Notes under the pieces: model-generated
What the model was told of the DNA's origin: nothing
Databases searched by the model: none
Seen by the model: the letters and a program-made list of their open reading frames with translations, nothing else
Program-made: the position numbers and the translations under genes
Origin: a phage
Sequence record: PZ091942.1
Length of the DNA: 64,000 nucleotides
Strand: one strand, 5' to 3'
Part shown: positions 34,429 to 64,000 of the stretch, one piece after another
Layout: the number at the start of each line of letters is the position of its first letter
Numbering within the stretch: position 1 is the first letter of the stretch

Positions 34429-35877
34429 ATGATTAAGATTCCATTGTCTGAATTGAACCTTCAAGAAGGAGAAGCCCTCAGTGTAGGGCTTGACCTAATT
34501 CGTAATTTGATCAGAGATAACGTAGTCCCTGATGGTATCTATCCTGTCATTGCAGGTGGTGCTATCCGTGATACGTTCTTCCAAAATCGAACTCCGAATG
34601 ATGTTGATATCTTCCTAGTTCAAGGAGGGCTTCGTTGGAACACTCGTCAGGAAAACAGCCCTGCTAACGTAGGTAATGCTGCACTTTTCCTTGACAACTT
34701 CTTATCTTGGACAGAAAGTAAGGGGCTTCAGGTTACATCTCGACTAATTCAGCCTGTTAACGGGACAACCTATGCTGAAGCGCTTTTCACTTTCCAAGAG
34801 ATTCTGGAAATTGAGATTGATCAAGTTAAAATCCAGATGATGATTAATCTACCTTTGGATATGGATACTTTAAGCCGTCGCTTCCCTATGATCTGTCAAG
34901 GGTTTATGACTCTTGGTAATCTGTATGTGTCAAACGAAGGTTTGTTTGCAATGTCATACACTCGTGACATTCCTGTGGTATCTAGTCGTGAAATGAAGTA
35001 CGTTCACAAGAAGTGGCCTGAAGCAACTGTTGCAGTTTATAGCAGTTCTACCGAATATATGCACCTTGCAATGGGAGCTTTCGGTGAGCCAGAAGTTCAC
35101 CTGATTAGTGATTTAGTTGGACCTATGGCTGGTGTAAATTTATATCAGAATCAGCGTCGTCATTATACCCTGAAGATGATGGAAACTATATTAAACATTC
35201 CTCAGGAAAGGGGTCGTAGTTATCTGGACGAGGAAGTTAACCTACAGACAGAATGGTCTAGTGGATTAACCACTATCGGTGCTGAAGCAATCACACAACC
35301 TTGGACTCCGGGAACCAACAGACGTGACTCTTGGCAACAGGAAGTCCCAAGATTCGCAGCCCCTTCTACAATGGACCCTCGTAATACTTTTAATGGCAGT
35401 TTTGGTAGTGCACGTTCTTCTGGGACGGACACCCACAACCGTACATGGCATGTTCAAGGGGGAACTGCTCGTCCTATTCCTTCTCCGTCAATGGGTGATT
35501 TACAGCGTTCTCGTCGTTCATGGGAAACAGTAAGCTCAGTTGTTCAGGGTCTACGTGCTGGTGATATAGAACGTGTAGAAGTTGGTGATTTGCCAACCCC
35601 TATGGAAGATCGAGTGTCAACTATAGCGGCTCGTGAAGCTGCTCGTGTTGGTTTTCCATCTTTAGCTAATGATGCTAACAATACTCCTCGACCTGTCGGT
35701 CGTCGTAACGGTCTGGCTCACTCTGACACTGCACTTGGTGCAGAACTTCGAGCTGCTGCTCGTGAACTATCTGGTGAGCTTCATAACAACTTAGCAGGTG
35801 TTACACTATCTCGTGAAACAGCTCGCAACATGATTAACAATTTGGCATCATCTGTACAAGGAAATAGAAACTCATGA
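34429..35877 (+). CDS. Pol-beta superfamily nucleotidyltransferase (CCA-adding/poly(A) polymerase-like head domain)
   Basis: ORF track; IAGGAIRD-x9-DVDIF matches GGxVRD...DxD head-domain motif; C-terminal half is R/S/G/T-rich low complexity. Confidence 0.55.
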   Translation: MIKIPLSELNLQEGEALSVGLDLIRNLIRDNVVPDGIYPVIAGGAIRDTFFQNRTPNDVDIFLVQGGLRWNTRQENSPANVGNAALFLDNFLSWTESKGLQVTSRLIQPVNGTTYAEALFTFQEILEIEIDQVKIQMMINLPLDMDTLSRRFPMICQGFMTLGNLYVSNEGLFAMSYTRDIPVVSSREMKYVHKKWPEATVAVYSSSTEYMHLAMGAFGEPEVHLISDLVGPMAGVNLYQNQRRHYTLKMMETILNIPQERGRSYLDEEVNLQTEWSSGLTTIGAEAITQPWTPGTNRRDSWQQEVPRFAAPSTMDPRNTFNGSFGSARSSGTDTHNRTWHVQGGTARPIPSPSMGDLQRSRRSWETVSSVVQGLRAGDIERVEVGDLPTPMEDRVSTIAAREAARVGFPSLANDANNTPRPVGRRNGLAHSDTALGAELRAAARELSGELHNNLAGVTLSRETARNMINNLASSVQGNRNS

Positions 35878-41159: not shown

Positions 41160-41337
41160 AATGTTTTAAATGTGAATCAACTCTTCTCCATTTGAACTCG
41201 AAAGTAATACGGGAGCTTGCCAAAGGCTCCCCGACTAAAGGGAAGAATAAGAAGTTTGTCGAAATTAAGGTTATAGGTATACATTGTTCAGAGTGTAAAT
41301 CCTGTAGCTTCTTATATGAAGAACACGGAGGTAGGAA

Positions 41338-48139: not shown

Positions 48140-48345
48140 GTTAATTAGTTTTCTTTTGATTTTAATAGAGAATCAAAGTCCTAGGAGTCCTCAACCTAAA
48201 TCAAGGATTTCCTTAATTCTCTATTTTTATCTCGCAGGTGTCTCCTGCCCTTCCGGTAGTCTCTCAATTTCTAACAAACTTATGAGAGGTGGTTGTCCGC
48301 GCCTTATAGTCGTCGGTCCCGTGCAATAGTTTTACTAGCTATACC

Positions 48346-48357
48346 ATATATACATTA
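48346..48357 (-). promoter_or_regulatory. TAATGTATATA-type motif (candidate phage-sigma promoter), minus strand
   Basis: Minus-strand TAATGTATATAT; no minus-strand ORF downstream. Confidence 0.35.
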
Positions 48358-48419
48358 CTGTTTGTTATTATCTACTACCAAAAAGGTTATAGTATAATAG
48401 AACCTTATCTGTATAGGTG

Positions 48420-48431
48420 TAATGTATATAG
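48420..48431 (+). promoter_or_regulatory. TAATGTATATAG motif (candidate phage-sigma promoter)
   Basis: Exact 12-mer also on minus strand at 57629-57640, both 35-55 nt upstream of a gene start. Confidence 0.5.
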
Positions 48432-48487
48432 TATACCAACCGCTCAAAGAGAGCAACAATCTTAAATTTATATAAGGAAATATTAAT

Positions 48488-49228
48488 ATGTCTATGATCC
48501 CTGAACTGTCTGTATCCCGTAAATCCAACTACGATGTAATCCCTGATGGCGAGTACGAAGCACGCATTGTTCGTGTAGTAGGTTTAGGTGTTCACAATCG
48601 TGACCCTTGGATTGACCCTAAGACCAAAGCAGTTACTCCTAAGAACCCAGCTTTCCGTATGGACTTGGCTTTTGAACTGATTGGCGTGGATGCAACAGGG
48701 ATTGATAATGAAGGCAAACCTCTGGACCCTCGTCCTGCTTGCCAGTTTAAAACTTTCGATGTAAACCCACGAGCTAAGAATTCTGGTATTCTGAATTTGA
48801 TTAAAATGATCGACCCAAGTGTTCAAGCACTGAAAGGTGATTTGGGTTGGTTTAAAGATATGCTGTTAGGTCAGCCTGTTAACATTCTGGTTAACTCCTA
48901 TGTAAACAAAGCTGGGGAGAAGAAAAATTCTATTAAGAGTATTACTCCAATCCCGACCAAGTATCGTGATGCAGTAGGTGCTCCTCGTAGCGACCTTATC
49001 TTCTTCGAACCGTATGCTGAGACTGATGCTAACTTAACCGCTTATCAAGCTATGTTCCCATTCCAACGTAACCTTCTGACCCAAGCTAATGATGCTAAGA
49101 ACATTCCTCTGGCTGGTCGTGAAGTTACTCGCGCTTCTGATACTGAACAGAAAGATGCGACTCCTAGTATCCCTACTATTAATGAAGAGCCGCAGTCTAC
49201 CTTTGAAGAAGATGATAGCCCTTTCTAA
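48488..49228 (+). CDS. ssDNA-binding protein-like (acidic C-terminal tail)
   Basis: ORF track; AAGGAA SD; NNT-biased codons; C-terminus FEEDDSPF resembles SSB acidic tail DFDDDIPF. Confidence 0.55.
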   Translation: MSMIPELSVSRKSNYDVIPDGEYEARIVRVVGLGVHNRDPWIDPKTKAVTPKNPAFRMDLAFELIGVDATGIDNEGKPLDPRPACQFKTFDVNPRAKNSGILNLIKMIDPSVQALKGDLGWFKDMLLGQPVNILVNSYVNKAGEKKNSIKSITPIPTKYRDAVGAPRSDLIFFEPYAETDANLTAYQAMFPFQRNLLTQANDAKNIPLAGREVTRASDTEQKDATPSIPTINEEPQSTFEEDDSPF

Positions 49229-49251
49229 TGAATCTCTCCTTGTAATAGCTT

Positions 49252-49275
49252 AGCCACCTTCGGGTGGCTTTTTTC
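49252..49275 (+). terminator. rho-independent terminator (UUCG tetraloop)
   Basis: AGCCACC-TTCG-GGTGGCT then TTTTTTCG. Confidence 0.75.
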
Positions 49276-49287
49276 GTTGGGGTTAAA

Positions 49288-49635
49288 ATGGAAAAGCTTC
49301 AAAACAATATAGGTTTCTTAGTCTTTACAGCTCTGGTTTTCTTTGGTGGTATGAAGTTTGAGCAATATCGAAATGATAGTAATGCTCTTGACCAAGAGAA
49401 GAAACAGCAAGAGATAGAGATAGAGAGAGCTAAGGCTGCTGATGAAGTAGCTCAGAAAGTTCTGACTGGTTTAACTAACTGGAAGAAGAACACAGAAACT
49501 ATTTACAAAGAGATGCATTATGAAAAGACTAAGCCAGTTTTTTACAATGTGTGTGCTAGCGATGAATTTGTCAGCTTGTTCAACGAGCGACAACAGCAGG
49601 CAGCTAGTGCCCTTACCAACAAACCTAAAAGCTGA
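49288..49635 (+). CDS. i-spanin-like protein (Rz-like)
   Basis: Internal ATG of track ORF 49264..49635; N-terminal TM helix then coiled coil; contains embedded lipoprotein gene in another frame. Confidence 0.5.
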   Translation: MEKLQNNIGFLVFTALVFFGGMKFEQYRNDSNALDQEKKQQEIEIERAKAADEVAQKVLTGLTNWKKNTETIYKEMHYEKTKPVFYNVCASDEFVSLFNERQQQAASALTNKPKS

Positions 49636-49780
49636 ATGCGATATAGACCTCCCTTTACTTCAGAGTGGACAAGGAGTAGCATTTGCAACAACACTTGAGT
49701 GGTATCAGGATAACTACACAATCTGTGCTGCTAACCACAATGGTTTACTTAAAGCTCTCAAAGAGAGAGGAATACAATGA
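49520..49780 (+). CDS. o-spanin-like lipoprotein (Rz1-like)
   Basis: ORF track; signal peptide with lipobox LSAC; Pro-rich mature region; starts inside 49288..49635 in a different frame. Confidence 0.5.
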   Translation: MKRLSQFFTMCVLAMNLSACSTSDNSRQLVPLPTNLKAECDIDLPLLQSGQGVAFATTLEWYQDNYTICAANHNGLLKALKERGIQ

Positions 49781-50001
49781 TCAGAGCAGAACTTACAATA
49801 CCAGAAGGCGTTACTCAGCTTCATGCAGTATGGGAGTATAACAACCAGATTTGGGGACGAACCTTTAAGTTCTTTGTCGATGGAGATCAATCCTATTGGG
49901 CCTATTATGACTCTGAAGAGGATATGTGGATTAAAGTGAGTGGCATTCAGACAGCCATCCCTTGCCCTGAAACGGCTATGTATTTATTCTGCGTAGTTTA
50001 A
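49777..50001 (+). CDS. hypothetical protein
   Basis: ORF track; GAGAGG SD; ATGA overlap. Confidence 0.5.
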   Translation: MIRAELTIPEGVTQLHAVWEYNNQIWGRTFKFFVDGDQSYWAYYDSEEDMWIKVSGIQTAIPCPETAMYLFCVV

Positions 50002-50025: not shown

Positions 50026-50676
50026 ATGAAGAAAAAGACAACACCTACACGCTATCGTATTCATGGCATTCCTATTAAGTATTATCCAACCTTCGATGAA
50101 TTCTATCGAGAGAACTGGAAAGTTGTGCATAAGTATTTTATGTATGACATTAAAGATTATCACGAAGCAGAGGATGTTGCTCAGGAAGTGTTACTAAACG
50201 CTTGGCGTTTTGTGTTTGCAAAGCAAGAAGAACTTCTGCTCACTGATGAAAAAGATATTGAGCACATGACTTATCGTGTCAAGAATATCATCTGGTCGAT
50301 TCGTTCTAATCGCCAGACAGTTGGAGACCGACGTATCTACTCTATTCCAGAGGCTGATATGTTTAGACCTCCTGAGATGAATTCATGGGAAAGCCCTTTA
50401 GAGATTGCAATGGATAAGCATGACTCTACTGGAGACCCATTCTTGGAATCTAGAATCTTTTTCTTCTTCCAAGACTTAAGTGATATTATGGATACCAAGA
50501 AAATGGCAAGCATGTTCTCTATGCTCTTCCTTGGAATACCTCATGATCACATCCAGCAGGAGCTGGGAATTTCACACGGAACTTTCTATCGCCGTTATGC
50601 AGAGAATCGTGATCTATATGAAGCGGTAGTAGAGAAGCACTTTGATAAAGAAGATCTTCAAGGGATGATTCAATAA
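50026..50676 (+). CDS. ECF-type sigma-70 family sigma factor
   Basis: ORF track; AAGGA SD; region-2-like [14 protein letters not shown] and region-4 HTH-like [15 protein letters not shown]. Confidence 0.75.
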
Positions 50677-61346: not shown

Positions 61347-62141
61347 TTATTTAGTAACACCAACACTTGCCAGACGTCTAAGAACGGCTTGTGTCTGTGG
61401 GCTGTATTGAGAACCTGCTTGAGTTGGTGCATGTGCTCTTTGAACTGTTTGAGACTTAGGAGCCTTGCCTGCTAACATTGCAGCAGCAGCTAGTGCAGCA
61501 TTACCAAAGTTCTGTTGTGGCTTCTGGTCTTCCCCAGCTTCTTCTACATCATCAGAATAGAACTCAGTAGGAGAACCACCAAGAGCACCTGTTTTAGCAG
61601 CAGCAATCTCAGCTTGAGTAGGAGCATTAGCAGCACCTTCCCTAGTAACCAATTCAGGAGAGAACTGATTCACTGGCTGTACTGACTGTAAAGCACCTAT
61701 TGGGTTAGCAACCTGACCAGCAGCATCGTTAGCTGTATAGAAAGGAAGGAAGTTCTTATTGTTCATAGAGTCCAAAGCCTGAGGTGTGAATCCTTTCTTA
61801 CCAGCGAACATTTGTTTTGCTCCACCCGTCCCTTCAGAATATCCCACCATAGCTTTCTTCACATCACCATTAAAAGCTTTCAAGTTATCTCGAATGTACC
61901 TAGCACCCATGTCAATGTTTTTGGCTGGGTCTAAACGATCTTCTAGTTTGTATCCATAGTCTTTAGCCAACCCTTTACTGATTTGCATTAAACCTACTGG
62001 CCCTGTACCTGATGCAACAGAAGGTCTACCACTAGACTCCCTCTGAATGACTGCATGGATAAGAGCAGCAGGAATGCCATACTTCTTAGAAGCTTGCTGG
62101 ACCATAGGGTCAAGCTCAGACACTCCCATGCGAATTGTCAT
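61347..62141 (-). CDS. lytic transglycosylase (SLT-domain) virion protein
   Basis: Internal ATG of track ORF 61347..62183 with AAGGAGG SD; SLT motif IQRESSGRP...GLMQI. Confidence 0.7.
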   Translation of the reverse strand: MTIRMGVSELDPMVQQASKKYGIPAALIHAVIQRESSGRPSVASGTGPVGLMQISKGLAKDYGYKLEDRLDPAKNIDMGARYIRDNLKAFNGDVKKAMVGYSEGTGGAKQMFAGKKGFTPQALDSMNNKNFLPFYTANDAAGQVANPIGALQSVQPVNQFSPELVTREGAANAPTQAEIAAAKTGALGGSPTEFYSDDVEEAGEDQKPQQNFGNAALAAAAMLAGKAPKSQTVQRAHAPTQAGSQYSPQTQAVLRRLASVGVTK

Positions 62142-63985: not shown

Positions 63986-64000
63986 TGCATGAAGAGCTTT

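Follow-up and report, generated by a model that had tools for sequence, protein, structure and literature searches.

Two overlapping open reading frames (ORFs) in a stretch of phage DNA of 64,000 nucleotides (nt; sequence record PZ091942.1, one strand, 5' to 3'; referred to here as the window) very probably encode the two-component spanin of a phiEco32-like coliphage: an i-spanin gene at 49288–49635 on the plus strand, which specifies 115 residues from an ATG, and an o-spanin gene at 49520–49780 on the same strand, which specifies an 86-residue precursor. Spanins are the proteins with which phages disrupt the outer membrane of the host when an infection ends. The source of the DNA belongs to the phiEco32-like coliphages (Kuravirus/Suseptimavirus), with Escherichia phage ECBP2 as its nearest relative (94.7% identity in the region). 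The region has matches in about 100 phiEco32-like coliphages, and 151 phage records match the gene pair alone. The spanin pair is already known and catalogued in this near-identical phage.

In the compilation of Kongari et al. from 2018, ECBP2_0034 (115 residues) and ECBP2_0033 (86 residues) are listed as i-spanin and o-spanin of class 'ovl' with an overlap of 116 nt, and the pairs of phiEco32, NJ01 and KBNP1711 are likewise entered as 'ovl' with an overlap of 116 nt (PMC6139136). The window proteins differ from those of ECBP2 by point substitutions only, two in the i-spanin and four in the o-spanin (which agrees with ECBP2_0033 at 82 of its 86 positions), corresponding to 98% and 95% amino-acid identity, respectively, and the overlap, the class and the flanking genes are the same. 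Identity to the phiEco32 i-spanin is 80%. The compilation places the i-spanin in a family, 'JH2', that takes in FelixO1-like myoviruses, and the o-spanin in a family of four phiEco32-group members, i.e., NJ01, ECBP2, KBNP1711 and phiEco32 (PMC6139136). Similarity to these families extends over the full length of both partners: the i-spanin ORF matches phrog_1152, 'Rz-like spanin', over residues 2–115 (E = 7e-37), and the o-spanin ORF matches phrog_2425 over residues 6–84 (E = 2e-23). Together with the identity to the curated ECBP2 pair, the match to PHROG 1152 bears out the i-spanin/o-spanin reading proposed in a first-pass annotation of the window. In GenBank and RefSeq, 'Rz-like spanin', often together with 'o-spanin', is annotated at the corresponding locus in many records, e.g., for phi32_39, SU7_31, IMEP8, ShigP1 and Paul.

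The two genes share a dual-coding overlap of 116 nt (49520–49635, plus strand), in which the C-terminus of the i-spanin is read in frame 0, and the signal peptide and first mature residues of the o-spanin are read in frame +1 relative to the i-spanin ORF. Being co-oriented and overlapping, the genes belong to the 'overlapped' class of two-component spanins. Both ORFs lie exactly where the first-pass annotation had placed them; its text described the layout as overlapped, which is correct, whereas the term embedded in its title is not, given that the o-spanin ORF reaches 145 nt past the end of the i-spanin ORF. An alternative GTG start for the i-spanin at 49264 was rejected: it falls inside the terminator-like hairpin described below, and in the curated entry the gene begins at the ATG.

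The i-spanin has a single N-terminal transmembrane (TM) anchor, formed by its only hydrophobic segment, residues 8–22 (IGFLVFTALVFFGGM; nt 49309–49353), with a Kyte–Doolittle mean of 2.23 over 15 residues, in line with the TM segment anticipated for this ORF. An N-in/C-out orientation of the protein appears likely. The 89-residue tail is charged and rich in Lys, Glu, Ala and Gln, and it contains one cysteine, Cys89 (nt 49552–49554), which is invariant in the 14 sequences of the family alignment and is located within the conserved block WKKNTET..EMH.E.T.P.FYN.CA.D. The periplasmic domain is predicted to be largely helical; the AlphaFold2 (AF2) model (mean predicted local distance difference test score, pLDDT, 60) consists almost entirely of helix (residues 2–29, 31–75 and 92–110), and in this low-confidence model the helix break coincides with the conserved Cys block. 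The first pass had described this ORF as a coiled-coil protein; the published coiled-coil table gives the phiEco32 i-spanin without a coiled-coil segment (PMC6139136). A juxtamembrane motif, GGM.K..YRND (residues 20–30; nt 49345–49377), recurs in unrelated i-spanins, with counterparts in phage 133 PseT.3 (LGGMWKIQDYRND), lambda Rz (NHYRDN) and FelixO1 (YSYRDY), and may represent a convergent membrane-proximal feature.

The o-spanin N-terminus, MKRLSQFFTMCVLAMNLSAC followed by STSD, has the features of a signal peptidase II substrate: basic residues (Lys2 and Arg3), a hydrophobic core, and a lipobox, Leu17-Ser18-Ala19-Cys20 (LSAC; nt 49568–49579), in which Cys20 is the predicted lipid-modified residue. 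The residue at +2 is Ser and not the inner-membrane retention residue Asp. By the Lol sorting rule, Ser at +2 directs a lipoprotein to the outer membrane, and outer-membrane sorting of the o-spanin is therefore predicted. The lipobox had been recognized in the first pass, and the signal proves to be the only one of its kind in the window: when all 1593 start–stop combinations of at least 40 residues in the six frames were filtered for basic residues at the N-terminus, a hydrophobic core free of charges and a lipobox with its Cys at positions 15–28, the o-spanin ORF alone passed. The mature protein, expected to be Pro-rich, has only three Pro among its 67 residues. It contains two cysteines, Cys40 (49637–49639) and Cys69 (49724–49726), both invariant in seven sequences. 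Periplasmic cysteines are thus present in both partners, and Cys89 of the i-spanin and Cys40 and Cys69 of the o-spanin are candidates for intermolecular disulfides. In the AF2 model of the o-spanin (pLDDT 52), the N-terminal half is coil and the C-terminal part forms two helices. The protein is not a unimolecular spanin of the T1 gp11 type, as it lacks a hydrophobic window outside the signal peptide; the highest Kyte–Doolittle 15-residue mean in the 86-residue lipoprotein is 1.6, at residues 7–21. In public records and in the output of gene callers, the o-spanin is often truncated, such that it starts after the i-spanin stop, loses its signal peptide and is labelled hypothetical. The truncated product is 57 residues long in phi32_38 (locus L011, 1774–1947) and in database clusters P0002–P0005, and 41 residues long in Bas88_0028 (locus L003, 32946–33071).

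Both frames of the overlap are under purifying selection. In an alignment of eight loci (the window, ECBP2, Bas88, phiEco32, three other Kuravirus-type loci and an 88-kb contig, L010, whose i-spanin is 51% identical), 35% of the columns vary within the overlap compared with 53–66% in the unique parts of the two genes. In the part that codes for the o-spanin only, codon position 3 of the o-frame varies in 43 of 49 columns compared with 11 of 48 at position 2, and in the part that codes for the i-spanin only, position 3 of the i-frame varies in 66 of 77 columns compared with 38 of 77 at position 2. These codon-position signatures and the reduced variation in the overlap indicate that protein is encoded in each of the two frames. 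All aligned relatives retain the o-spanin start codon together with its lipobox Cys and its two mature cysteines, the overlapped pair with its lipobox Cys and two mature Cys is found in phiEco32, NJ01, KBNP1711 and the 88-kb contig, and the ORFs of the pair are intact at every locus examined.

A subset of relatives carries the pair in an interrupted form. In Bas87, Bas86, SU7 and PAS59, the position of the overlap is occupied by an insertion of about 545 nt that carries a gene for a homing endonuclease of the HNH-AP2 type (PF13392, E = 3e-14; AP2, E = 7e-7), and a diverged form is present in EK010; the split loci map to 3815–4852 in L002 (Bas87), 3911–4948 in L001 (SU7) and 401–1438 in L013 (EK010). 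The overlap is partly duplicated in these loci. The upstream copy completes the i-spanin with a variant C-terminus and has a stop in the o-frame, and the downstream copy retains the o-frame, with the o-spanin start located within the 3' end of the HNH gene. The split-locus o-spanins consequently carry a signal peptide unrelated to that of the overlapped form, MLTKKKQKSCLVI[FL]LASSLMAC in Bas87 and SU7, and (V)HIKKKLLSCTGILLAFSLSAC in EK010, however, in each case the new signal peptide still has a lipobox Cys at its end, which keeps it in register with an unchanged mature protein. That a signal peptide was re-created implies that the lipoprotein signal is itself selected, and not only the nucleotides shared with the i-spanin gene.

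The annotated two-piece join of Bas87_0030 (L002, 3815–4707) would imply an intron. This reading was rejected, since the i-spanin gene ends at an in-frame stop of its own, almost all of the insertion is taken up by the HNH frame, and there is no match to an Rfam intron family. The insertion is more likely a free-standing homing endonuclease gene, and the join is probably an annotation artefact. A similar rearrangement is known from the T5 family, in which the spanins of Shivani and phiR201 are separated by a GIY-YIG homing endonuclease and T5 itself has a 70-bp overlap (PMC6139136). The two cases are parallel in that an overlapped pair becomes separated, the C-terminus of the i-spanin is changed and the signal peptide of the o-spanin is renewed; they differ in the endonuclease, which is of the HNH-AP2 type in the Bas87-type relatives and of the GIY-YIG type in the T5 family. 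The window phage has the uninterrupted arrangement. We found no paper that describes the HNH split of the spanins in Bas87-type phages.

Among spanins outside the phiEco32 group, those of FelixO1-like phages (Felix01 p014/p015) are closest. The i-spanins belong to a common family and share the block YEKTKP.FYNVC..D..V..FN, the o-spanins are homologous (29% identity, E = 5e-10), and the FelixO1 pair is also overlapped and of similar size (115 and 89 residues). FelixO1 differs in virion type, in genome context and in having one periplasmic Cys in the o-spanin instead of two, and its o-spanin is assigned to a separate family by Kongari et al. (PMC6139136). At the start of the overlap, about 68 nt (49519–49588) are 82% identical to FelixO1-like genomes, e.g., JH2 (KF055347.1, 6971–7040), and no DNA-level similarity to these genomes was detected over the remainder of the locus. 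Extreme dual-frame constraint or horizontal exchange could account for this stretch.

Compared with lambda Rz/Rz1, the window pair follows the same logic of a type II inner-membrane protein and an outer-membrane lipoprotein in the +1 frame, with Cys in both. Lambda Rz1, however, is fully embedded and has a Pro-rich mature part of 40 residues, while the window o-spanin overlaps partly, has a Pro-poor mature part of 67 residues and is predicted to have C-terminal helices, unlike Rz1. The lambda pair is part of the S-R-Rz lysis cassette; the phiEco32-like pair is located about 18.5 kb from the holin and lysozyme genes, on the opposite strand. The T4 genes PseT.3 and PseT.2, in turn, are of the 'separated' class, whereas the window pair is overlapped. 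Homology to T4-like PseT.3/PseT.2 was considered, with phage 133 as the T4-like stand-in for the profile comparison, and was discarded: hhalign aligns PseT.3 with a probability of 68% over residues 1–31 only, i.e., the TM and juxtamembrane segments, and PseT.2 with 28% over the lipobox region only, so that the matches are confined to the TM and signal-peptide segments and do not include the periplasmic domains.

The first-pass annotation stated that neither a holin nor an endolysin gene adjoins the pair, and this is accurate; the arrangement is not a lambda-type lysis cassette, in which spanins adjoin both. A translated search (tblastn) of the window with the ECBP2 holin and endolysin found neither (best E = 1.5). 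The absence is mostly explained by the position of the window edge. Bas88 and ECBP2 have a 72-residue holin (phrog_11161, E = 8e-47) and, as endolysin, a 163-residue T4-type lysozyme (PF00959 Phage_lysozyme, E = 5e-31), both between tail genes of the late structural module, and a location among morphogenesis genes is documented for Kuravirus holin and lysozyme genes (PMC7881722; PMC4281155). Position 64000 of the window corresponds to position 18543 of Bas88, and by collinearity the endolysin and holin genes of the window phage would be located about 4.1–4.8 kb past the window end. In ECBP2, the holin and endolysin genes (15126–15866, plus strand) and the spanin genes (34587–35080, minus strand) are about 18.7 kb apart and oppositely transcribed. 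Such separation has a precedent in the validated T4 spanins, pseT.3/pseT.2, which are unlinked to the holin and endolysin genes t and e (PMC6139136) and show that spanins are not defined by such linkage.

Two further genes of the window, SleB-like at 13990 and SLT at 61347, had been put forward as the only muralytic candidates. Both are present: the former (13990–14376, in the early region) encodes a Hydrolase_2 protein, i.e., a cell-wall hydrolase of the SleB/CwlJ type (PF07486, E = 2e-7), and the latter (PF01464, E = 4.5e-24) is located among the genes for ejection proteins and matches families of internal-virion and lytic tail proteins. The presence of lysozyme and holin in the late module of the relatives argues that the SleB-like and SLT proteins are not the lysis enzymes on which the spanins depend, and other roles are probable for both. 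About 200 nt downstream of the Hydrolase_2 gene is a 101-residue ORF (14578–14883) in whose product a hydrophobic segment at the N-terminus is combined with a strongly charged tail that looks helical by eye. PHROGs and Bas88 label it 'DNA helicase', which looks like a mis-annotation.

Upstream of the spanins is a syntenic homologue of phiEco32 gene 40 (phi32_40), which spans 48488–49228 (plus strand), encodes 246 residues (phrog_6599, E = 2e-106) and is the first gene of the unit; phi32_39 and phi32_38 are the spanins of phiEco32. It had been described as similar to single-stranded DNA-binding proteins, a description that finds no family support: there is no match to such a family and no relative in the PDB, the PHROG is of unknown function, and the acidic tail, ending in EEDDSPF, is the sole hint. 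The best match, below threshold, is to NGO0469, an NCBIfam family of phage replication-initiation proteins (E = 6e-5; 22.7 bits, where the cutoff is 75). An exact copy of the motif TAATGTATA precedes the gene by about 60 nt, at 48420–48428 on the plus strand. It matches the consensus of phiEco32 middle/late promoters, tAATGTAtA, the promoter element of the gp36 holoenzyme, and promoters have been mapped upstream of genes 6, 13, 26, 40, 58 and 68 (PMC4331800; PMC8948821). The copy at 48420 is a probable promoter of the unit that contains the spanins. Six copies of TAATGTATA occur in the window compared with 2.6 expected by chance. A second copy nearby, at 48349–48356 on the minus strand, faces no ORF, and a further antisense copy is at 41278–41285. 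The non-coding gap of about 350 nt between a phosphoesterase gene and the gene-40 homologue (48140–48487) thus holds two inverted TAATGTATA elements. A scan for sigma-70 promoters in the vicinity of the spanins yielded nothing beyond what shuffled sequence would lead one to expect.

Between the gene-40 homologue and the i-spanin, a terminator scan and folding identify a terminator-like hairpin on the plus strand at 49252–49275, AGCCACC-TTCG-GGTGGCT followed by six T, with a GC-rich stem of 7 bp, 13 nt upstream of the i-spanin ATG. The stem is invariant and the loop alone varies in ECBP2, phiEco32, KBNP1711, NJ01, EK010, Bas87 and SU7; the 88-kb contig has a hairpin of different sequence with six T directly after its gene-40 homologue. 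The element, which like the promoter motif is conserved in position, is a putative attenuator or leaky terminator that would separate gene 40 from the spanins. In addition, a CTCC after the gene-40 stop can pair with the GGGG/GGAG Shine–Dalgarno sequence of the i-spanin (49236–49283) and encloses the hairpin, a fold that is predicted in all close relatives and may serve in translational damping of the i-spanin.

Downstream, a 74-residue ORF (49777–50001, plus strand) overlaps the o-spanin stop with its ATG (ATGA) and is probably co-translated with the o-spanin; it matches phrog_30479 (E = 3e-48), of unknown function, and has no TM segment. It is followed by a homologue of the gp36-type sigma factor (50026–50676, plus strand; phrog_1740, E = 9e-45), supported by a weak Sigma70_r2 match and by synteny with phi32_36. 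A sigma factor had been named as a neighbour of the spanins; the gene is there, but the 74-residue ORF intervenes. The slot between o-spanin and sigma factor is variable. It holds a 74- or 75-residue ORF in the window, ECBP2 and the 88-kb contig (75 residues in the latter), and in phiEco32 it holds a gene for a 146-residue macro-domain (Appr-1-p processing) protein, phi32_37 (L011, 1334–1774). The gene order of the 88-kb contig is gene 40, spanins, small ORF, sigma factor and deoxynucleoside monophosphate (dNMP) kinase. Elsewhere in the window, the sole Rfam match is a transfer RNA (tRNA) gene at 17927–17999 (72.5 bits), which probably corresponds to the tRNA-Arg of Bas88.

By homology to phiEco32, genes from about 25 to 68 are of the middle class (PMC4281155). 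Taken with the promoter and hairpin elements, the gene order suggests that the spanins are probably part of a middle transcription unit that starts at a P40-type promoter upstream of gene 40 and extends into the sigma-factor gene, and that they are expressed by read-through of the leaky terminator. Spanin expression would then be earlier and lower than that of the late lysis genes.

Several observations weigh against the spanin assignment. Lambda Rz is unrelated to the i-spanin profile (hhalign probability 0.1%), neither protein shows significant similarity to the lambda Rz (Pfam Phage_lysis) or Rz1 families, and scans of both proteins against Pfam (E ≤ 0.1) and NCBIfam gave no match to a spanin model. 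As noted, similarity to the T4-like PseT.3/PseT.2 pair does not reach beyond the TM and signal-peptide segments, and a sequence search of the PDB with the i-spanin profile returned nothing meaningful. The mature o-spanin is Pro-poor and predicted to be partly helical, which sets it apart from lambda Rz1, the structure models are low in confidence (pLDDT 52–60), and the charges that flank the TM segment of the i-spanin are not decisive for its topology. The searched literature reports no lysis test for the 'JH2'/PHROG 1152 i-spanin family or for the o-spanin family, and both expression timing and hairpin read-through are what we infer for the window phage. The spanin assignment is one by architecture and predicted topology signals, and not by homology to a validated spanin.

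These points leave room for a different role of the same two proteins, namely that the TM protein and the lipoprotein are envelope proteins with a non-lysis function in the middle phase of infection, e.g., superinfection exclusion or receptor masking by a small lipoprotein of the outer membrane, by analogy with T5 Llp or the Cor proteins, and that the outer membrane is disrupted by other means. The location of the genes in a middle cluster beside a sigma factor, away from holin and endolysin, would suit such a role, as would the dependence of the lysis assignment on architecture, with no sequence relation to validated spanins. The validated T4 spanins are, however, likewise unlinked to t and e (PMC6139136), and a non-lysis role would have to accommodate the tight overlapped coupling of i- and o-spanin, which is conserved across podoviruses and FelixO1-like myoviruses, the invariant periplasmic cysteines of both partners, and the maintenance of the pairing even after it has been split by a homing endonuclease. 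Moreover, no other ORF with a lipoprotein signal is available in the 64 kb as an alternative spanin. We regard a non-lysis role as very unlikely.

It is still less probable that the pair is a decaying relic and that the outer membrane is breached by a disruptin-type peptide or by a spanin encoded elsewhere. The pair is indeed unlinked to a lysis cassette, the locus is interrupted by homing endonucleases in several of the relatives, and the lipoprotein-signal screen covers the 64-kb window, with a further 13 kb or so of the phage genome lying outside. Yet purifying selection is strong in both frames, no locus examined has a broken ORF, and where the HNH gene has inserted, both genes have been repaired and not lost. 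Least tenable of all is that the 86-residue ORF is a chance product of the alternative frame and the Rz-like TM protein alone a gene: although most gene callers and several GenBank records miss the full ORF and give products of 57 or 41 residues, this reading is already contradicted by the comparative data, i.e., the o-frame codon-position signature beyond the i-spanin, the conservation of start codon, lipobox and Cys down to the 51%-identity relative, the signal peptide re-created in the HNH-split variants, the uniqueness of the lipoprotein signal in the window, and the homology to the FelixO1 o-spanin.

For the pair as a two-component spanin, the lambda Rz/Rz1 model (Rajaure et al., per PMC6139136) provides the template of a mechanism. 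The i-spanin would be held in the inner membrane by its TM anchor and extend its helical domain into the periplasm, and the mature o-spanin would be attached by its lipid to the inner leaflet of the outer membrane. Their C-terminal parts would bind to one another across the periplasm, with the conserved cysteines forming intermolecular disulfides, and the peptidoglycan mesh would keep the resulting complexes inactive. At a late stage of infection, the holin would permeabilize the inner membrane and the T4-type lysozyme would remove the peptidoglycan, upon which the freed spanin complexes would fuse the inner and outer membranes, and progeny would be released. Because peptidoglycan would restrain the spanins, co-regulation with holin and endolysin would not be needed, and the spanins could be produced at an early stage, from genes that are not linked to the other lysis genes.

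As a discovery, the assignment carries little weight, the pair being present in a curated compilation and in many annotations, and unlinked spanins being textbook knowledge for T4. Its value is practical: the apparent lack of lysis partners is shown to be largely an effect of the window edge, and records in which the o-spanin is truncated or missed are flagged. It is rather unlikely, in our estimate, that this spanin family, whose Pro-poor and partly helical o-spanin is unrelated to Rz/Rz1, departs from the lambda model and that its conserved placement in a middle unit behind a leaky terminator is itself functional. If it were so, spanin complexes would already be loaded into the envelope long before the late burst of holin and lysozyme, or the spanins would have a second role prior to lysis.

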